Positions 1,305-48,631 of a stretch of 64,000 nucleotides of DNA are shown in pieces. Where the stretch lies: the NCBI GenBank assembly GCA_029573725.1, contig JAKQDQ010000042.1, positions 777 to 64,776 of the forward strand, in the 5' to 3' direction. The stretch comes from Verrucomicrobiota bacterium (GTDB lineage: Bacteria; Verrucomicrobiota; Verrucomicrobiia; Limisphaerales; JADLHS01). Both the position numbers and the translations under genes were made by a program. Every line of letters starts with the position of its first letter. The first letter of the stretch is position 1. The notes under the pieces were generated by a model. The model saw nothing but the letters and a program-made list of their open reading frames with translations. It had not been told where the DNA came from and made no database searches.

Positions 1305-1748
1305 ATGATTATGAAAAAACTTATTTTGGGAACGATCACAGCCCTCGCCCTGACCGGGGTGATGGCGGCGGACGCGGTCAACTGGCTGACGGATGCCGTC
1401 AAGGCACAGGCGCAGGCCAAGGCGGAAAACAAGCTGGTGCTGCTGGATTTCACCGGTTCGGATTGGTGCGGTTGGTGCATCAAATTGAACAAGGAGGTCT
1501 TTTCGCAACCGGAATTTGCGGACTATGCGAAGCGGAATCTGGTTTGCGTGGAGGTGGATTTCCCGATGAAGAAAAAGCTGAGCGCGGAGCAGAAAAAGGC
1601 GAACGATGCACTGGCGGCGAAGTACAACATCAGGGGATATCCAACCATCATCGTGCTTAATGGCGAGGGCAAAAAAGTGGGCGAGCTGGGCTACATGAAA
1701 GGCGGACCGAAGAAATTTACGGCGGAACTGGACAAACTGAGGAAGTAA
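1305..1748 (+). CDS. secreted thioredoxin-fold protein
   Basis: Internal ATG at 1305 (MIMKKLILGTITALALTG, a signal-peptide-like N-terminus). It has the thioredoxin-like motif DFTGSDWCGWC (CxxC) and GYPT further on. The upstream part of ORF 1125..1748 overlaps pyrC and is Arg-rich noise. Confidence 0.75.
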   Translation: MIMKKLILGTITALALTGVMAADAVNWLTDAVKAQAQAKAENKLVLLDFTGSDWCGWCIKLNKEVFSQPEFADYAKRNLVCVEVDFPMKKKLSAEQKKANDALAAKYNIRGYPTIIVLNGEGKKVGELGYMKGGPKKFTAELDKLRK

Positions 1749-1829
1749 TCCAGTGCCTGGTTTCCGCGGCTGGCGACGGGGCCTCGGGCCGGCGCGGTGA
1801 GGGGTGTTTTCACAAGCCCGCGACGTCCA

Positions 1830-2555
1830 TCAATCGCGGGTGATTTCGCGCAACGCGTCTTCCAACTGGCGGCGCAACTGTTCCCGTTCGACTGCGGAAG
1901 CCTCGCGCGGCACGTGAATCAGCCGTCCCGTGCAGACGTGGCAGCGCGCAAAGGGCAGGGGGATTTGAAAGCGGTCCCAACTGCGCAATTGCAGCTTCCA
2001 ATTCAGATCGTAGGCGACGGGCAGGATGGGACGTCCGGTCAACTGCGCCAGGGCGACAATGCCTTCCTGCACCGAGTACCGTGGTCCGCGCGGGCCGTCG
2101 GGGGTGATGGCCAGATCGCAACCGTTCCCACCCCAGGTGACCAGTTCGCGCAACGCTTGCGGTCCGCGGCGGGAGGAGGAGCCGCGGACCGGCTCCACTT
2201 GGAACAACTCCAGCACCCGCGCCAGCAGAGCGCCGTCCTTGCTGGCGCTCACCAGGGCGGCCATGCGGCGGCCCGGCTGCCGGCGTTGCACCAGCCGGGC
2301 ATACAGACTCAGCACCAGCGCCAGCCGGTTGTGCCAGACGGCGAAAATGACCGGTGTAGCCGAGGCTCCGGACAAATAACCAGCTTGATCGGTGATCCGG
2401 ACCCGCACGGTGGCGCTCAGGGCGCAAACGGACAACCAGATGAGGCGCGCAAACAATCTCTGCCAGCCATTGGCCTGATGCGGAACGATCACCCCGGAGC
2501 GCCGAGGAATGCGCGGCCTGCCCGCAAGGGCATCGAATTCGGAGGGGGCGGCCAT
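1830..2555 (-). CDS. DUF374 / lysophospholipid acyltransferase family protein
   Basis: 241-aa ORF with VWHNRL (HxxxxD-like acyltransferase region), SASKDG and PDGPRGP motifs typical of DUF374 LPLAT-type proteins. Its start overlaps the ruvA stop. Confidence 0.65.
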   Translation of the reverse strand: MAAPSEFDALAGRPRIPRRSGVIVPHQANGWQRLFARLIWLSVCALSATVRVRITDQAGYLSGASATPVIFAVWHNRLALVLSLYARLVQRRQPGRRMAALVSASKDGALLARVLELFQVEPVRGSSSRRGPQALRELVTWGGNGCDLAITPDGPRGPRYSVQEGIVALAQLTGRPILPVAYDLNWKLQLRSWDRFQIPLPFARCHVCTGRLIHVPREASAVEREQLRRQLEDALREITRD

Positions 2556-3160
2556 CAGGCACCTTTTTTCAAAGCCACCCGGACGAGCGCCTCGATCCCG
2601 GCGTTATCGCCCAGCATGGCCAGCGCGGCGCGCACGGATTCATGTGCTTCCGCCGGTTTGAAGCCCAGAGCCATCAAGGCCAGCACCGCGTCGTTGAGCT
2701 TTTGCTCCGTGGCGGACAGGCCGTGCCGGGCGCTGGCGGCCTCCCAGGCGCCGGCCGCTCCGATCTTGTCACGCAGTTCCACGACGATGCGCTCGGCGGT
2801 CTTCCTGCCCACCCCGGAAATTTGGGAGAGGGCTTTGACGTCGCCCTGCGCCACCGCGCCACGGAACGCAACGGGGTTCATGCCGCTCAAAACATTCAAC
2901 GCCAGCTTCGGTCCAATGCCGCTGACGGTATTGATCAACATGCGGAACAGCTCCCGTTCCGGAGCGGTCATGAAGCCATAAAGCACCTGGGCGTCCTCGC
3001 GCACGACAAGGTGCGTGAGGATTTTGATCTCCGCCCCGGGCGCGGGCAATTTATCGAAGGACGAGAGTGGAATCAGCACGTCATAACCCACGCCATGGAC
3101 CTCCACGATCACCTGCGTGGGCAGGGCTTCCACCAGTTGGCCGTGAAGAAATGAAATCAT
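2555..3160 (-). CDS. ruvA: Holliday junction branch migration complex subunit RuvA
   Basis: N-terminus MISFLHGQL...VEVHGVGYDV, two helix-hairpin-helix segments (ISGVGRKTAERI) and a C-terminal domain III. 201 aa. Confidence 0.9.
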   Translation of the reverse strand: MISFLHGQLVEALPTQVIVEVHGVGYDVLIPLSSFDKLPAPGAEIKILTHLVVREDAQVLYGFMTAPERELFRMLINTVSGIGPKLALNVLSGMNPVAFRGAVAQGDVKALSQISGVGRKTAERIVVELRDKIGAAGAWEAASARHGLSATEQKLNDAVLALMALGFKPAEAHESVRAALAMLGDNAGIEALVRVALKKGA

Positions 3161-3295
3161 TGTGGATCAGTTGGGCACCGGTGCGGCGCACGGCCCGGGC
3201 TGCCCGCCGCGCGGGCAGCCGGATGGGATGCGTCCGCCGGCGGCAGGCGGGATGGTTGCAGGAAGGACAAGTCGGGTGCGGGGGACATGGGGCAT

Positions 3296-3883
3296 CTACA
3301 CCGGCTGGAGAGGCTTCAAGTGGCCCCGGCGACGTTCCAGGTTTTGCGCCTGCGCCAGGGCCAGGGCCAGCGCGTCCGCCGCATCGGCGGATGGCAGCAC
3401 GGCGAGGCCCAGGAGGCGTTGCACCATTTTGGCAACGGCCAGTTTTTGGGCGGCGCCGTAACCCACAATGGCCTGTTTCACCTTGCGCGGCGCGATTTCG
3501 TAAATCTCCAGGCCCGCTTCGGCCAGCGCGGCCAGCGCCGCGCCGCGCGCCTCGCCCATGACAAGGGCGGTTTTCAGATTTTGCGCGAAAAACAATCCTT
3601 CGACGGCGCAGACCGTCGGTTGGAACGTCATGGCGACTTCGCGCACGGTTTTCGCTATGTGGGCGAGGCACCGGGAATGCGGCCAGTCCCGCGGACAGAC
3701 AATGGTGCCGTGCGTCAGCGCGACCGGTTGGGGCGTCCGGGTGGCAATGACCCCGTATCCGGTGCCGCGCAGCGAGGGGTCCAGGCCGAGAATGATCCGG
3801 TGCGCGGCGGTTGCCGGCAGCGGCGGCAGCGCGGGGTGTGGCGCGGCGTGGCGCAGCCCGGCGCCTTGGACGCGGGCGGTCAT
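3296..3883 (-). CDS. ruvC: crossover junction endodeoxyribonuclease RuvC
   Basis: ILGLDPSLRGTGYGVI (catalytic Asp region), EGLFF and ADALALAL motifs. The start is set at the internal ATG at 3883. The longer ORF reaching 4063 overlaps the pssA start region. Confidence 0.8.
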   Translation of the reverse strand: MTARVQGAGLRHAAPHPALPPLPATAAHRIILGLDPSLRGTGYGVIATRTPQPVALTHGTIVCPRDWPHSRCLAHIAKTVREVAMTFQPTVCAVEGLFFAQNLKTALVMGEARGAALAALAEAGLEIYEIAPRKVKQAIVGYGAAQKLAVAKMVQRLLGLAVLPSADAADALALALAQAQNLERRRGHLKPLQPV

Positions 3884-4061
3884 TTCGTTGAATTGGCGGA
3901 GAGTAATCCCCACGTCCGCACTGTGCCAATGAATGAAGCCCCGTAAAAGGACAAAACCGTGGATTTTGTACTTTGTGCAACGACGGCGCGCTCCTACTCT
4001 GAACGCGCACGTGGCGGGCGCGGTGGAGCCGGGTCTGGCGCAACTCCCCTCACGGCAAAGC

Positions 4062-4937
4062 ATGGCTGATGATCAACAGCAATCTGGTGGGGCGCTGCCG
4101 GAGGCGAAACTGAAGATTTATTTCCTGCCCAATCTCCTGACGGCGGGGAACCTCTTCTGCGGGTTTGTCGCCCTGACCAAGATCGTGGAGGCGGATCTGC
4201 GGGCCGGGGATTATTCGGCGATCAAAGTGGCGCTGGCCTTCATCCTGGCCGCCTGTGTTTTTGATTTGTTCGACGGTCGCGTGGCGCGGCTGGTGGGCGC
4301 GGACAGCCCGTTCGGGCGCGAGTTTGATTCGCTGGCGGATTTGATTTCCTTTGGCGCCGCGCCGGCGTTTCTGGTGCACCGGATTGTGCTCAAGGACGTG
4401 TTTGTGAAATACGCGGAGTTGGGGTGGTTTGTGGCCTCGATTTATCTGGTGTGTGGCGCGTTTCGCCTGGCGCGTTTCAACACCCTGGCCGGCGCGCCGG
4501 GCGGGGGAGGCGGCCGGGAGTTTCTCGGCTTTCCCATTCCTTCGGCTGCCGCATTGGTGGCCTCGCTGACGCTGTTCATGATCTGGCTGAACGAAATGGG
4601 TTTGATGGAAGCGCGGATTACGCACACCCGATGGCGCTATCTGCTGCCGACCCTGATGCTGTTTCTGTCGTGGATGATGGTCAGCCGGGTGAAGTATCCG
4701 AGCTTCAAAGTGCTGAACCTGCGCACCACCCGGTCTTTTCCCGGGATGCTGATCGCGATTTTGTTGCTGGGAATCATTGTGGTGACGCGGGGCAAGGCGT
4801 TGATGTTCATCCTCCCGCTGTTTTTCACCGCCTATTTGATTTACGGGTTCGTGCGACCACACATCTCGCGGCGCATCCGGCGGGACATCATCGAGGAGGA
4901 CCTGGAGGATGAGGAGGACCCGCCCGCCCCGGCCTAG
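4062..4937 (+). CDS. pssA: CDP-diacylglycerol--serine O-phosphatidyltransferase
   Basis: CDP-alcohol phosphatidyltransferase signature DLFDGRVARL...G..FDSLAD plus multiple TM segments. The start is set at MADDQQQ (4062). Confidence 0.8.
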   Translation: MADDQQQSGGALPEAKLKIYFLPNLLTAGNLFCGFVALTKIVEADLRAGDYSAIKVALAFILAACVFDLFDGRVARLVGADSPFGREFDSLADLISFGAAPAFLVHRIVLKDVFVKYAELGWFVASIYLVCGAFRLARFNTLAGAPGGGGGREFLGFPIPSAAALVASLTLFMIWLNEMGLMEARITHTRWRYLLPTLMLFLSWMMVSRVKYPSFKVLNLRTTRSFPGMLIAILLLGIIVVTRGKALMFILPLFFTAYLIYGFVRPHISRRIRRDIIEEDLEDEEDPPAPA

Positions 4938-4946
4938 GCGACCATC

Positions 4947-5627
4947 ATGCCGGAGCTGCCTCCTTTCCTGGTTGCCGCGTTGACGGGATTTCTCGCCGGC
5001 GTCGCGCTGTCCATTCCAGTCGGCCCGGTCAACATCACCATTCTGAACGAAGGCGCGCGCCGGGGATTCAAATGGGCGGCGATGATCGGGATGGGCGCGA
5101 CGCTGATGGAAATGATTTATTGCGCGATTGCGTTCACCGGGTTTGCCGCCATTTTCGAAAACGGCCTGATCAAGGCGCTGATGGAGGTGTTCAGCTTTGC
5201 CTTCATGCTCTTTCTGGGGGTGAAGTTTTTGCTGTCCAAATCCGTGCCCACCATGGCGCGGATGGAGCACCGCATTGAGTTAAAACTCGAACAGCGCCTG
5301 CATCCGCACTCGGCGTTCATGACGGGATTCGTGCGCACCCTGGCCAACCCCGGGGTGCTGCTGGGGTGGATCGTGCTCGGGGCGATTTTTATTTCCCGCG
5401 GTCTGGTGCGGCCGGATTGGGAGGGCAAACTGGCCTGCCTGGCGGGCGTGACGGCGGGCGTTGGCCTGTGGTTCCTGTGCCTGAGCTGGGCCATCTCCCT
5501 GGGGCAGAAAAAATTTACTGACAAGACGCTGCTTAAAATGGAACGTATTTCCGGCGCCTGTCTGGTTGTGTTCGCCTTGTTTCAAGGGGTGTTTCTGGCC
5601 ATGCGCCTGACCAACCATAGAATGTGA
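4947..5627 (+). CDS. LysE/RhtB family amino-acid exporter
   Basis: 226-aa polytopic membrane ORF with an N-terminal PVGPVN motif and a layout typical of LysE-type translocators. Confidence 0.7.
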   Translation: MPELPPFLVAALTGFLAGVALSIPVGPVNITILNEGARRGFKWAAMIGMGATLMEMIYCAIAFTGFAAIFENGLIKALMEVFSFAFMLFLGVKFLLSKSVPTMARMEHRIELKLEQRLHPHSAFMTGFVRTLANPGVLLGWIVLGAIFISRGLVRPDWEGKLACLAGVTAGVGLWFLCLSWAISLGQKKFTDKTLLKMERISGACLVVFALFQGVFLAMRLTNHRM

Positions 5628-5648: not shown

Positions 5649-5858
5649 ATGAAAAGCACGTTGGGCATTATTTTTCTGGTTGCCGGGGCGGGTCTGCTGG
5701 TCTGGGGCTACCGCGAGGCCCAAACTTTCAAGGGGAGATTGCATCAGACCTTCAGCGGTTCAACTAACAACCGCATTACGTGGATGTATGTGGGTGGTGC
5801 GGTTTTGGTGACCGCCGGTGCCGGGCTGGTTTATGCGAGCCGCGGCAAGGGGGGGTGA
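5649..5858 (+). CDS. small two-TM membrane protein (DUF3185-like)
   Basis: 69 aa with two hydrophobic helices flanking a polar loop. The sequence pattern recalls DUF3185. Confidence 0.55.
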   Translation: MKSTLGIIFLVAGAGLLVWGYREAQTFKGRLHQTFSGSTNNRITWMYVGGAVLVTAGAGLVYASRGKGG

Positions 5859-40149: not shown

Positions 40150-40731
40150 TCACAACTCCACCTGAATCCGCCCTTGCATCATCACCCCCGGACTCAGTTG
40201 GCCTTCCACGTAGTGATGCACGCGCAGCCAGATGAACGTGTCCACCGGCCATTCGCCTCCCTCGCCCGGACCATCCCACGACCCGTGCACGGCTGCATAC
40301 GCCGTCCCAATCGACGGCGTTAAATCACCCATCACCAGCGTTCCCGGCGTCATCACCGCGATGAAGCGCAGCCATCCATGCGCGTTCACCTCCTCCGCGC
40401 CCAACGGTCGCGTCGCCCACACCAACCACTTCACGCCCGGCCCAAAGTTGTCCTCCGCCCGAAAACCCACGAACCCGGCGTTCTCCGTAAACGGCCCGGC
40501 ATCGCGCAGCGATAAACCGCCATCCGACCACGTTGCCTCTCCGGGCAGCACCGCCGGATTCGCCGCGTCACCCGCGAGCGCCCGGTTGCGCAACACCCTC
40601 GTCATCGCCTTGCGCCCGCTCACGCGCCGCACCGTGCCATCAGCCAGCAGCACCGGATTGTTCTTCGCCCACGCGCTCCACGCCCGACGTTGCGTTTGCG
40701 TCAGGGACTTCCATTCCTTCGCCGCTTTCAT
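40150..40731 (-). CDS. hypothetical head-module protein
   Basis: The start MKAAKEW overlaps the portal stop (ATGA). 193 aa, no motif recognised. Confidence 0.45.
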   Translation of the reverse strand: MKAAKEWKSLTQTQRRAWSAWAKNNPVLLADGTVRRVSGRKAMTRVLRNRALAGDAANPAVLPGEATWSDGGLSLRDAGPFTENAGFVGFRAEDNFGPGVKWLVWATRPLGAEEVNAHGWLRFIAVMTPGTLVMGDLTPSIGTAYAAVHGSWDGPGEGGEWPVDTFIWLRVHHYVEGQLSPGVMMQGRIQVEL

Positions 40732-42218
40732 TGCGTTGCGTCTCCTTGTTCGCTTGCCATCGGCATTTGTTGACCGCGACAAACCAGTTGGTGCTCCTCC
40801 TCATTGGTGCGTCCCGGCGGCAACACTTCACCGCGCCGGAACAGCTCGCACATCGTCTCCCGGCTGATCGCCCCCGCCTGCCACGCGGCCACGACGGCCG
40901 TGATCTCATCACTCGACATCCCCTTCGTGCTGAAGTCCGAGTTGAGTTCCATCAACACGACGTCTTCACCAATTTCCTCAGGGCTTTCCTCGGTCGAGTT
41001 CCACCAATAAACCCAGCGCAACACGTGCGTCAGTGAATCACTCACACTCAACGACACCGCCGACAGCACCGAGTTTTCACCGCTTTGACGAAGTTCGATC
41101 GCATCGGCGGATTCGCCCACGCGCTTCTGTGCTTCGAGCATTCGCGTGCCAAGCACCGCCATGAGCCGTTCATCACGATCCATCGCCCGTTCAAACGTCG
41201 TCAGCCCTTGGCCCGTGAACTCCAGGAAACCAGCCGTCGCACCGGGAGTTTCCGCCACCCACGCAGTGCTTGAGCCGATTCGCAGCGTCGCCGACTTGTC
41301 GAACCCGCTCACCCAGGCCGTCGGCAGTGCGGTAAAATGCAGGCCATGCTTGTAGTCGGCATTCAGCCGATAGTGATCCAGATTCACCGCGATGATGTCC
41401 GCCAGCGGCAGTTTATCCACGCATGGCTGGCAGTTACGCGGACCATGAAACACGAACGGAATCAGTGGCAGCGGTTTCCCCAGGCGAAGCGGAATCCGGG
41501 TTTCGACTTTGACCCATTCGGGTTTGCTGCGCTTGGACTTCGACTCCTGGCGCTGCCAGATTTCCACCTGATAAAACCATCCGGTATTCTTTTCGTCAGA
41601 ACTTTTGGCTCCCTTCACGAGTCGCAACACCCGGAGTTGTTCCACTTCCTTGACGACGAAAGGATCCTCCTGACTCTGCCCCGTCTCACTCAGGACGAGC
41701 AGGGTCAGAACATTCCGACCATTCACCCGTTCCGTACGCCAGTTGATGATTTGTTCCACTTGGTAGAGTACGGCATAGGCGCGACGTTCCACGTCACCTT
41801 CCCAATCCACGAGTGTCCCGGCCCGACCCACCGTGATGACCTCACTGACGATGTTCTTCGCGTAGGATTCCAGCGGCGTGCCGAGCATGTCGGCATCATC
41901 CCGGAATCCCGCGAGTGCCTTGCCCACACCGGACTGGTCGTCCGGCAATTTCACGGCGGACTCGCGCCGGAAGATCAAACCCACGAAACCATCCACCGTG
42001 CGGGCCGTGGCATTGAAGAAGGAAGCACGGGATTTGTAGGCGGCATATTCGGTTTCGGATTGCGAGTCGAGGCGCGGCAGATACCGGGTGCCGGCGGCCT
42101 TCACCGCGTCCTCGCCCGCAAAAACATCCCGCGCCCGCAACCACGCGGCGGCGTTGGCATCGTAATCAGGATGGGTCGAGTTGACCGGCACGCGCGCACC
42201 GTAGCACGTCATTTTCAC
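40728..42218 (-). CDS. phage portal protein (DUF4055-like)
   Basis: 496 aa. The N-terminal pattern HPDYDANAAAWLRARDVFAGEDAVKAAGTRYLPRL...EYAAYKSRA is typical of DUF4055-type portals. Confidence 0.8.
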   Translation of the reverse strand: MKMTCYGARVPVNSTHPDYDANAAAWLRARDVFAGEDAVKAAGTRYLPRLDSQSETEYAAYKSRASFFNATARTVDGFVGLIFRRESAVKLPDDQSGVGKALAGFRDDADMLGTPLESYAKNIVSEVITVGRAGTLVDWEGDVERRAYAVLYQVEQIINWRTERVNGRNVLTLLVLSETGQSQEDPFVVKEVEQLRVLRLVKGAKSSDEKNTGWFYQVEIWQRQESKSKRSKPEWVKVETRIPLRLGKPLPLIPFVFHGPRNCQPCVDKLPLADIIAVNLDHYRLNADYKHGLHFTALPTAWVSGFDKSATLRIGSSTAWVAETPGATAGFLEFTGQGLTTFERAMDRDERLMAVLGTRMLEAQKRVGESADAIELRQSGENSVLSAVSLSVSDSLTHVLRWVYWWNSTEESPEEIGEDVVLMELNSDFSTKGMSSDEITAVVAAWQAGAISRETMCELFRRGEVLPPGRTNEEEHQLVCRGQQMPMASEQGDATQ

Positions 42219-42404
42219 GGCTCACCCGCATGTCATCTGCGCCTCACGAACCATCACGAACCCCACCCCTCTTGCCACGAACACACCCGAACTATTTTTT
42301 GTGGATTCCCCCTTGACGGTTTTCACAACCACGACGCGACACAACTTGCGAACGCCGCAATGTCCGTTGGCGGGCAGCGGCGTTCTCCCGTGTCTCCACT
42401 CCGT

Positions 42405-42599
42405 AGCTCTCGATGTGGTGTGTGTGTCAGCTCCGCACAGGCCGCGTAGATGGACGGCGAATGCATCTGCCGCGCCAGCCTGCCGCAGGCGCAACACAGG
42501 CTGTCACGGCAGATGCTTCGCCGGAGGAATTGAATGCGCTGTCGCGCAGCGCGACCCGTGCTCCGCAATGGTGATGACACACACACCACATCGAGAGCT
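42405..42599. repeat. 195-bp inverted-repeat element with perfect 25-bp arms (IR1)
   Basis: AGCTCTCGATGTGGTGTGTGTGTCA (42405-42429) is the exact reverse complement of 42575-42599. The 145-nt interior contains further nested stems, for example GGCGAATGCATCTGCCG / CGGCAGATGCTTCGCC and CAGCCTG / CAGGCTG. Confidence 0.85.
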
Positions 42600-42813
42600 G
42601 CTACGTTACGTTCGCAGTCACTGGCTGCGCTGGCAGGGCAGCATTGCCAGCTTCTATTTCCAGCGCGTCACCCAGCCCGTCCAGTTCTGGGTCGCGTGCG
42701 GGCGTCCACCCCAGTTCGCGCCCCGCATCCCGTGGTGGCAGCCGTTCGTCTGGCAGTATCTCGTCATCACTGGCTGGGTGCGGCCATCGCGCCAGCCACC
42801 TTGGGCAGCGTGA
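42568..42813 (+). CDS. hypothetical Trp-rich small protein (weak call)
   Basis: 81-aa frame (MVMTHTPHRELLRYVRSHWLRWQG...) with very high third-position GC, better than the antisense ORF 42601..42861. Its ATG lies at the inner edge of the right arm of IR1. Confidence 0.25.
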   Translation: MVMTHTPHRELLRYVRSHWLRWQGSIASFYFQRVTQPVQFWVACGRPPQFAPRIPWWQPFVWQYLVITGWVRPSRQPPWAA

Positions 42814-42901
42814 GCCGCTTCGTGGCTCACCGTCGCCGTGAACGATATCCACCTTGAGCATGGCGTAAGAACGGAAGTTTTGGCACGCTGCGGATTGAGC
42901 C

Positions 42902-43453
42902 ATGTGCACCGATTACGAAGGCCCAAAGCCGGAACAAAAAGCAGAGATCGAGCGTAAAATCCGATGTGAGGTTTTCGGCTTTGTCCCGCGTGCCCGTGTT
43001 CGCCCCACTGACCCGGCGCCAATCATCATTCCGGTGGAAGATTCTTTGGCCTGCTCCGAAATGCGGTGGGGCTGGACTGTGCCGTGGGACAAAGCACCAT
43101 TGGTCAACGCCAAGAGTGAAACCCTCACCACGCTTGCCACGTTCAAGCCCCACTTGGATCAGCGCTGTCTGATTCTCGCCCGCAGTTTCAAAGAAGGCGG
43201 CGCGCAATTTCACCAATCCGGATGGGGCGTGTTCTGTCTGGCCGGTCTCTGGCGCGAGGAATCCAGCGGCCCGCGCTTCGTCATGCTCACCACCACACCC
43301 AGCGAATCCGTCGCCCCCTTTCACAATCGGATGCCGTTTCTGCTCCGGGAAGAACAATTCCCCGACTGGTTGCGCGGCGATTACCTCAAAGTGCTGGCCG
43401 CACCGGACAAGTCGCCGCTGGAGAAATTCCAGAAGCAGCCCGAATTGTTTTAG
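42902..43453 (+). CDS. SOS response-associated peptidase (SRAP/YedK family)
   Basis: It starts with MC (the catalytic Cys2) and has the conserved NAKSET and HNRMPFLL motifs. 183 aa. It is on the strand opposite to the structural genes. Confidence 0.8.
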   Translation: MCTDYEGPKPEQKAEIERKIRCEVFGFVPRARVRPTDPAPIIIPVEDSLACSEMRWGWTVPWDKAPLVNAKSETLTTLATFKPHLDQRCLILARSFKEGGAQFHQSGWGVFCLAGLWREESSGPRFVMLTTTPSESVAPFHNRMPFLLREEQFPDWLRGDYLKVLAAPDKSPLEKFQKQPELF

Positions 43454-44742: not shown

Positions 44743-44886
44743 GGGGCGACACACAACACATATTGTGCGTTCGTTCCCTCGTGCCTCGGTCACACCTTTA
44801 TTCCTGATCGCACCGACACTCCTCACTCGTGAGCCGCTTCGGTGCGGGAATAAAGGGTCGCACAATATGGCGTTGTGTGTAGCCCC
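44743..44886. repeat. 144-bp nested imperfect inverted repeat (IR2)
   Basis: GGGGCGACACACAACACATATTGTGCG (44743-44769) pairs with CGCACAATATGGCGTTGTGTGTAGCCCC (44859-44886). Inner stems are ACCTTTATTCC/GGAATAAAGGGT, CGCACCGA/TCGGTGCG and CTCAC/GTGAG. Confidence 0.8.
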
Positions 44887-47233: not shown

Positions 47234-48631
47234 TCACAGCCCCCGCAACTTCCGCTCGCTGATCGTTCGGGTTTTCGTCGCCACCAAGTAGCGGAGACAG
47301 TCCGCGCAGTCATCGCCCCCAACGCCATCCTCGTCCGCGTCCACCTTGAGCACGTCCTCGGGCCGGTTTGGATCGTGTTGGAGTGCCGGCAACGTCTCAA
47401 TCAGCCGCCCGCAACGGGCGTGAATGAATAGTGTCGGCCTGATGCCTCCCTCAATATCACCTAACCCTTGCATAACTTCTGCCCAACCGTTCACCCGGTC
47501 GGTGTTGGCTGGACGCAGCGTGATACCCTGTTTCGCATATTGCGCGGCAATCGTCGTCCCGTCCGATTGCCGGCTGAAAACATCCGCGCCGGCCACGAAC
47601 CGTTTCAGGTCCGCCAGCGTCAATGCCCGGTCGCCAATCTTGTGCCGCGCGAGCATGGCCTTGATCGCCGCCGCGTGCCGTTGCGGCAGCCACAACCGCT
47701 CCGCGTGTTCATCCACGACATAGGTGTTTCCATCGCCATCGCGGCAGCCGAGCAGGCAGACCGTGTAATGGACGTGGCCGTAGTCAAAGGCACAGAACCA
47801 CTCCACGGCCCGCGCATCGTCGAAGTCCTCGACGACGTGAACGTCGCGCCGGAACTGCGTGAAGAACTGACCGGCGGCAATGTCCCAATCACCATCGAGC
47901 CAGGCGCGGCGTTGCCAGCCCGTCAGACCTTCCAGAATCCGCCGGTATTCCGGGTTGTTGAACGCATTGTCGTCGACGCGGGCCGGAATGAAGCGCGTTT
48001 CCGTCTCGCGCCGCTCCAGCATCGGCTGGACGAATCGCTTGCGATACCACGCATGACCAACGCCGCCGGGATTCGTGGTGGAGTAGATGCGCGGACGCCA
48101 GTTTGGCTTGGACGACCGGCAGCACGTCGTAATGTCTTGAAACTTCCGGCTCGTCAGTGTGGTTGCTTCCTCGATCCCAATGACATCGTATTCCAAGCCC
48201 AGGTAGGCATCCACGTCCCGGTCATTCTGGAAATGCCCGGCAATGATGCGCGAACCATTCGCGAAGGTGAGGATGCCGCGGAACGCGCTGAACTCATGTG
48301 GCAGCCGGTTGAACAGCCGTTGCCGGAGATCCTCGAAGTGCTCCAGGTTCGCTTTGCCCACTTTGCGGAGCAGCAGACATTTCAATCCTGGCACACGCTG
48401 ACAATCGTCGGCGCCGACTTGGGACAACATCCAGTGCGACTTGCCGCCGCCACGAGCGCCACCGTAACCGACTTCCGTCGGCCCGTCGGGGCGGTCGCAC
48501 AATCGGGCGGCAGCACTGGCAACCAGTTGACGCTCTTGCAACCACAATTTCGCGGCCACGAAGTTGCGGGTTTGATCCTCGGGACAGCCCGCCGCAATCG
48601 CGGCGTTCAGGAAAATTTCACGCTCGTTCAT
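47234..48631 (-). CDS. terL: terminase large subunit
   Basis: 465 aa with Walker A-like GGARGGGKS, Walker B LLLRKVG..., the ATPase coupling motif GIEEAT and a C-terminal RNaseH-like nuclease region (FDYGH..., DADEDG). Confidence 0.9.
   Translation of the reverse strand: MNEREIFLNAAIAAGCPEDQTRNFVAAKLWLQERQLVASAAARLCDRPDGPTEVGYGGARGGGKSHWMLSQVGADDCQRVPGLKCLLLRKVGKANLEHFEDLRQRLFNRLPHEFSAFRGILTFANGSRIIAGHFQNDRDVDAYLGLEYDVIGIEEATTLTSRKFQDITTCCRSSKPNWRPRIYSTTNPGGVGHAWYRKRFVQPMLERRETETRFIPARVDDNAFNNPEYRRILEGLTGWQRRAWLDGDWDIAAGQFFTQFRRDVHVVEDFDDARAVEWFCAFDYGHVHYTVCLLGCRDGDGNTYVVDEHAERLWLPQRHAAAIKAMLARHKIGDRALTLADLKRFVAGADVFSRQSDGTTIAAQYAKQGITLRPANTDRVNGWAEVMQGLGDIEGGIRPTLFIHARCGRLIETLPALQHDPNRPEDVLKVDADEDGVGGDDCADCLRYLVATKTRTISERKLRGL

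Follow-up and report, generated by a model that had tools for sequence, protein, structure and literature searches.

A 195-bp inverted repeat in a Verrucomicrobiota prophage, best read as the local form of a conserved start-codon hairpin of a small Trp/Arg-rich protein gene

The window, which is the whole stretch of 64,000 nucleotides analyzed here, comes from a Verrucomicrobiota bacterium and holds a 195-bp element (42,405–42,599) inside a gap of about 680 bp between a portal gene and a SRAP gene. The portal gene (40,728–42,218, − strand) belongs to the DUF4055/phrog_145 family, phrog_145 being assigned via relatives, and is transcribed away from the element. The SRAP gene (42,902–43,453, + strand) lies on the other side of the gap. 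The large terminase gene, terL (47,234–48,631, − strand), whose family was also assigned via relatives (phrog_979), forms the other boundary of the island which contains the element and which splits terL from the portal gene. Upstream of the element, a conserved region (42,245–42,325) is composed of CACGAAC heptamer repeats (42,245–42,292), a T-rich tract and TTGACGGTTTTCA (42,313–42,325). Both the heptamers and TTGACGGTTTTCA are found again in relatives, on the portal side of the module (L055, 5660–5740; L022, 1090–1190). They are part of a conserved unit of about 500 bp, not peculiar to the portal gene of the window, and could serve as an operator, as iterons or as a promoter. A scan for sigma70-type promoters, which does not cover phage-specific ones, gave none at 42,100–43,000, and a terminator scan returned a single + strand “terminator”, located inside the small open reading frame (ORF) at the right edge of the element. 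Two further structures were considered and set aside. A hairpin at the stop codon of this ORF (GAGCCGC-TTC-GTGGCTC) is not conserved beyond the window's subfamily. A second inverted repeat (IR2, 44,743–44,886) resembles the element only in the general style of its CA-rich arms of about 27 bp; it has no homologue of the small protein encoded after it and is neither a copy nor a homologue of the module. No second copy of this protein is encoded elsewhere in the window.

The left, 5′ arm of the element (42,405–42,429, + strand; AGCTCTCGATGTGGTGTGTGTGTCA) is the exact reverse complement of the right, 3′ arm (42,575–42,599, + strand), which bears out the perfect 25-bp inverted repeat described by an earlier, sequence-only reading of this locus. 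The left arm has no coding role and can pair with the opening codons of the small ORF, while the right arm encodes approximately (M)THTPHREL of the small protein. Arm pairing reaches 30 nt at 93% (42,405–42,434 with 42,570–42,599), and the + strand fold adds two pairs on the base side, U42404·G42600 and G42403–C42601. The same reading had placed this stem beyond chance, and rightly so, because a 17-nt core of the arms is found at these two places and nowhere else in the window, against 0.01 occurrences expected in shuffles. Folding of a 216-nt stretch gives −126.5 kcal/mol for the + strand and −138.0 kcal/mol for the − strand, with z = −9.2 and −9.9, respectively, when compared with dinucleotide shuffles.

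The nested inner stems that had been noticed are present as well. In the folds, an inner closing helix is formed by GCACAGGCCGCG (42,435–42,446, + strand) and CGCGACCCGTGC (42,550–42,561, + strand); its two + strand mismatches (A·C and C·A) read as U·G and G·U on the − strand, and the A·C mismatch is kept in all relatives of the window's own subfamily, called type A. The first internal hairpin, hp1 (42,456–42,522, + strand), is of about 20 bp with a variable loop. Its stem is built from GGCGAA..TTCGCC, GCATCTGCCG/CGGCAGATGC and CAGCCTG/CAGGCTG, and it carries the conserved motif CGCGCCAGCC...GGCTG(T/G)CACG. The second one, hp2 (42,536–42,552, + strand; GCGCTG-TCGCG-CAGCGC), is small and conserved in type-A relatives. 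When relatives are compared, synonymous drift is absent from the right arm, except for changes which are mirrored in the left arm.

Two ATGs had been proposed as candidate starts of a Trp-rich small ORF, at 42,568 and 42,574, and both indeed open a frame ending at 42,813 (small ORF, 42,568–42,813, + strand), which corresponds to 81 and 79 aa, respectively. Judged against the rest of the family, the consistent start is ATG 42,574 (79 aa). Substitutions counted over ten copies in the + frame are distributed as 372, 345 and 709 at codon positions 1, 2 and 3. The pN/pS ratio is 0.41 in the ORF frame and 1.3–1.5 in four other frames. It is 0.55 in the only reverse frame sharing third positions, which is full of stops, and a reverse-strand ORF was rejected; the + frame is stop-free in nine of the ten copies. 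By its pattern of substitutions, the small ORF is a real gene under purifying selection.

The encoded protein has 33 close homologues. It is strongly basic (pI 11.7 in the window, with 8 Trp, 9 Arg and neither Lys nor Asp), and the family medians are a pI of 11.9, 9.6% Trp and 15.4% Arg. Residues Q, Y, R, V, P, W, G, P and PWW are invariant across the homologues. No transmembrane stretch was detected in the window protein, the highest 19-residue Kyte–Doolittle average being 0.59. The AlphaFold2 model consists of a long helix (residues 8–43) and a short one (residues 59–68), with a pLDDT of 79; it gave no fold match when searched against the PDB, and a Pfam search of the protein gave no match either. 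As judged from these searches, the small protein represents a previously undescribed family, without Pfam or PDB relative, which comprises 112 clusters at 50% identity by HMM, 78 of them below 1e-10.

Database entries for this protein (P0001–P0143) have called lengths ranging from 31 to 1765 aa and are often extended upstream through the 5′ arm. Gene callers mis-start the small ORF, the family-consistent length being 75–85 aa, and annotators should be warned that its start is called inconsistently. An apparent fusion with DUF6448 in one locus (L060) turned out to be an artefact of an out-of-frame ORF.

A scan with one genome per species retrieved 62 loci, almost all labelled Verrucomicrobiota, together with two IMG/VR contigs. 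Clustering of the flanking ORFs reveals a recurrent order, with the major capsid, scaffold and portal genes read in one direction, then the module, read in the other, a set of variable genes, and finally terL, read in the same direction as the portal gene. The portal gene was found in 29 loci, and terL was present at a distance of up to 4 kb in 15. The small gene lies between portal and terL, read opposite to both, in about 30 related prophage loci. Directly before the ORF, 37 distinct hairpins of 11–36 bp were found in the relatives. All 37 share an invariant TCA-loop-TGA, with a loop of 10–13 nt which is A-rich on the sense strand, and in all of them an in-frame (A/G)TG start is composed of the last loop nucleotide and of the TG that opens the 3′ arm. 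Read from this junction, the ORF is 75–85 aa long in most copies, and its first 6–12 codons are always base-paired to a matching stretch on the upstream side. Five copies have an in-frame stop inside the loop, two or three codons upstream of the start; the start at the loop/arm junction is therefore the only possible one there. No Shine–Dalgarno sequence is evident. Coupling to an upstream ORF through an overlapping TGATG/GTGA motif was considered and rejected, because an open upstream frame with a start is not regularly present. Such an ORF is even impossible in several copies and, since the loop length varies from 10 to 13 nt, the frame relation to such an ORF is not kept.

The arm sequences are wholly different between lineages, yet they remain complementary, which makes up 30 distinct arm pairs. 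These were aligned on the fixed apical motif, pairing being not used in the alignment. Over 36 positions, 76.7% of the combinations are Watson–Crick, against 52.3 ± 1.0% in column shuffles and 23–33% in shifted registers. Positions 1–17 are almost all Watson–Crick, with two to four pair types each, and at least three Watson–Crick pair types are observed at 21 of the 36 positions. RNAalifold applied to 14 diverse modules finds 27–29 pairs with double-sided changes. The covariation which the sequence-only reading had proposed to look for is found in abundance. The pairing itself is under selection, independently of the sequence. An AT-rich relative from IMG/VR (L090) also keeps the hairpin architecture.

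The hp1 hairpin was found in 39 distinct relatives, and both its outer and inner stems covary. In this hairpin (here 42,463–42,516 in the window), a conserved C·A mismatch is accompanied two base pairs away by C·T or T·C, between flanking pairs which covary; on the opposite strand these mismatches become a conserved G·U beside G·A, which has the look of a recognition motif. The linker can also carry a mini-hairpin, CC-NNNN-GG (for example in L055 at about 5806–5816, L033 and L043), with a GACA loop in one lineage. Whole modules (hp1, start hairpin and ORF) are duplicated in tandem, 0.6–1.4 kb apart inside one and the same prophage island, in five loci (L049, L050, L060, L069 and L070), and one metagenome-assembled genome (MAG), MFD02979.bin.4.344, has at least 12 loci. 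Some contigs with the Verrucomicrobiota prophage module are found in MAGs labelled Bifidobacteriaceae, Bifidobacterium or Hyphomicrobiales, and are probably mis-binned or mislabelled.

In the common form of the module, hp1 lies about 130 nt upstream of the start-codon hairpin, outside it. The type-A subfamily (the window, G031, G028, L028, L031 and L037) differs by the position of the 5′ arm, which has moved by about 145 nt and lies upstream of hp1, leaving a “loop” of 142–164 nt. Because of this shift, hp1, hp2 and the linker become enclosed, hence the nested 195-bp structure. Though moved, the type-A 5′ arm still pairs with the same coding segment. One compensatory position of the arms is G:C in the window, T:A in G031 and G035, and C:G in G028; in L031 and L037, a 3-nt deletion is found in both arms. 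G035 has window-type arms around a different 55-nt interior. This copy (L010, contig C373, 1086–1745) has perfect 27-bp arms and a frameshifted ORF. It is located 270 nt after a tRNA-Thr gene, beside a PIN/AbrB-type toxin–antitoxin pair and with no portal gene nearby, and may mark the border of another integrated element. Taken together, the 195-bp repeat is best read as the local form of a conserved cis-element of the small prophage gene.

Four options had been offered for the element by the sequence-only reading, namely a translational control hairpin, a structured non-coding RNA, a MITE-like insertion and a DNA hairpin active in single-stranded form. The first one has the best support: a genuine protein-coding gene has its initiation region within the stem, the right arm being the 5′ coding end of this conserved gene with the start always at the loop/3′-arm junction, and the 30 arm pairs show compensatory pairing (76.7% against 52%). 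By analogy with the T4 genes I-TevI, soc and e, the hairpin may act by fold-back occlusion of translation initiation, a tentative reading to which slightly less than even credence is given. On a transcript including the 5′ arm, a helix of roughly −50 to −75 kcal/mol would form on coding positions +2 to +25/+36. Such a helix over the start region would block 30S binding, and no initiation would occur. Synthesis of the protein would then be limited to transcripts which begin within the hairpin, to RNA whose helix has been cleaved, or to conditions under which some factor opens it; as regards cleavage, the helix would be long enough for RNase III. We infer both that the element acts in the sense mRNA and that the helix represses translation. 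The displacement of the 5′ arm between subfamilies, with the same coding segment still paired, fits the need to cover the start region. Several observations count against this fold-back model. The element and its surroundings gave no sigma70-like promoter, which leaves the short-transcript half of the model unsupported. The 10–13-nt loop of the plain form leaves little room for an internal start site, and sense-strand G·U pairs are nearly absent from the helices.

The main alternative, possible although rather unlikely, is that the functional molecule is the RNA of the − strand, i.e., that of the late operon, in which the start hairpin, the linker and hp1 would be domains lying between terL and portal. 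This is the sole form in which the structured non-coding RNA option survives. Such an RNA could be a late-transcript leader, an RNase III-type processing site or a cis-antisense RNA with a hairpin loop that complements the start region of the small gene, in the style of IS10 RNA-OUT/RNA-IN or of type I toxin–antitoxin systems, and it could coexist with the sense-strand model. Read-through on this strand is plausible because terL and portal are both on it, and both strands may well be transcribed. The mismatches found in the strict arms (C·T 18, T·C 11, C·A 5, G·T 1) and in hp1 (C·A 33, T·C 32, C·T 26, T·G 2) turn into G·A and G·U on the − strand. Many of them are however inherited and do not represent independent events, and their spectrum is skewed because coding constrains the 3′ arm and leaves the 5′ arm free to change. 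One hp1 pair is U·G (10 sequences) or U·A (4 sequences) on the − strand, where the + strand has C·A or T·A, and the A·C mismatches of the type-A closing helix and hp2 are wobbles on the − strand only. Conversely, in the coding arm of the window, a CTA>CTG change which is synonymous produces a U·G wobble on the sense strand. The − strand also folds better, in the window and in 32 of 33 modules, with an RNAalifold consensus of −72.3 kcal/mol against −52.9 kcal/mol for the + strand; this advantage is not decisive, since the neighboring coding genes show the same bias. In several lineages the linker tetraloop, read on the − strand, is GCGA, GCAA or GUAA (GNRA), but the largest clade has UUCG or UCCG there when the + strand is read. 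Two features belong to the sense strand, namely the A-rich loop and the invariant in-frame start at its edge. That the helices contain almost no G·U pairs keeps a DNA reading in consideration, in which a cruciform or single-strand hairpin would serve phage replication, packaging or recombination, the conserved loop being a recognized site and the upstream CACGAAC repeats iterons; this proposal is judged improbable. The arms are essentially all Watson–Crick, with very few wobbles on either strand. The conservation of the loop and of its closing TCA/TGA over variable stems recalls rolling-circle nick sites, and the upstream side has direct repeats of the heptamer as well as a T-rich tract. The start codon, however, fully explains the conserved loop end, and no HUH, Rep or recombinase gene is recurrent nearby, the recurrent neighbors being head and packaging genes and unknowns. 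Moreover, the mismatches conserved in hp1 would be without effect in duplex DNA, and a 5′ arm which can lie 145 nt away makes a poor cruciform.

The readings as a mobile or retron-like unit fare far worse. A MITE, or non-autonomous transposon with 25-bp terminal inverted repeats, is suggested by the perfect terminal repeats on a unit of about 200 bp, by a partial second copy on contig C167 which abuts an IS5-like transposase fragment, and by the many copies found in several MAGs. Yet a search through the whole 4.28-Mb assembly yields one full copy and one decayed right-arm remnant, with no dispersed copies, and the flanks (CCGT|...|GCTA) have no direct repeat, so there is no target-site duplication. 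Other genera of the same family (G031 and G028) carry the full element at the syntenic position, beside portal, and one of the “terminal repeats” is coding sequence. The multi-copy genomes contain several prophages or tandem duplicates of the module of about 500 bp, not dispersed 195-bp units. The MITE option is thus refuted for practical purposes, its residual likelihood being very slight. The C167 copy, which lies in an island at 1570–5450 (G000, L006), comprises the right arm and about 260 bp downstream, at 88% identity, with a stop codon in the small ORF, and starts exactly at the end of the truncated IS5-like (DUF772) transposase ORF. HEPN RiboL-PSP and Fic/DOC genes and a C-terminal fragment of terL (74% identity to residues 317–465) are found downstream of it. 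Judged from this content, the C167 island is what remains of a second, decayed prophage of this family and not a transposed unit. A retron-like msr–msd unit, with a1/a2 repeats flanking a long msd-like hairpin, deserves equally little credence. The long flanking repeats, the one long and one short internal hairpin and the phage-associated setting provide a likeness which is superficial. There is no reverse transcriptase on the contig, the only RVT_1 match of the genome being on contig C82, the neighbors are portal and SRAP, and most relatives are plain hairpins whose 10–13-nt loop contains nothing resembling an msd. Rfam gave no match to a retron family, and no Rfam family of any kind comes near its gathering threshold: in a scan of both strands at E ≤ 1, the best match was isrG, with 21.2 bits for a threshold of 100, and the remaining ones were chance miRNA and snoRNA matches.

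The fold-back hairpin stays as the preferred reading. A more ambitious proposal would unite the hairpin, hp1 and the small Arg/Trp-rich protein into one self-contained RNA switch, the protein being an arginine-rich-motif RNA binder comparable to lambda N with boxB; the likelihood of this proposal is judged low. The protein would recognize the conserved mismatch-bearing hairpins of the island, including the one formed from its own first codons. It would thereby control its own translation and also whether the late transcript, which has to cross the island on its way from terL to portal, is read through or processed. Were it true, this would be a new protein–RNA regulatory system using both strands in an uncultivated phage lineage.

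What appeared as an isolated palindrome has become a defined module, in which a new small-protein family is associated with a hairpin which ranks among the most heavily covarying ones in a coding 5′ end. The structure is real and strongly selected, ordinary in kind as a hairpin over a translation start, and unusual in its architecture. No regulatory biology of these Verrucomicrobiota prophages is described in the literature searched. If the fold-back model is true, the temporal translational gate of T4 type would extend to a distant phage lineage, with an unusual design: the codons themselves would form a 25–36-bp helix, with the start at the loop edge and a 5′ arm movable across a structured insert. 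If instead the opposite-strand reading is true, the element would belong to a structured RNA of the late transcript, located between the terminase and portal genes.

The closest known parallel is found in T4, where hairpins hide the translation start (I-TevI, segB, soc, e) on long transcripts only, with a late promoter inside (PMC2988022). As in T4 I-TevI, I-TevII/III, segB, soc and e, a stem covers the start of an accessory or non-essential gene placed among essential late genes and, in the model proposed here, the structure would likewise form only on transcripts which include the upstream arm. The T4 stems are short, cover the Shine–Dalgarno sequence and the AUG, and have a mapped late promoter inside. 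In contrast, no internal promoter was found in the present hairpin, and the first 6–12 codons build a near-perfect Watson–Crick helix of 17–36 bp with the start at the loop edge. The module can also be compared with type I toxin–antitoxin systems such as hok/sok and symE/SymR, with which it shares a small gene, a structured 5′ end, a potential antisense overlap and a prophage-borne location. A toxin of this type was rejected: the protein, of pI 11.7 and 79–81 aa without transmembrane segment, is not a short hydrophobic membrane peptide. To our knowledge, neither toxicity nor an antisense promoter is associated with it. Long near-perfect intergenic duplexes are also found at the RNase III sites of T7 and lambda, and 25–36 bp would suit RNase III. 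A difference is that the sites of T7 show characteristic internal loops and separate cistrons of one strand. Finally, IS10 uses fold-back inhibition against read-through transcripts, and IS10/Tn10 also has RNA-OUT, a hairpin RNA of antisense type with a loop that complements the start region of RNA-IN. In both IS10/Tn10 and the present module, an upstream complementary segment pairs with the start region, and RNA-OUT parallels the − strand alternative; no transposase is involved here, the gene being that of a small basic protein within a prophage head module.
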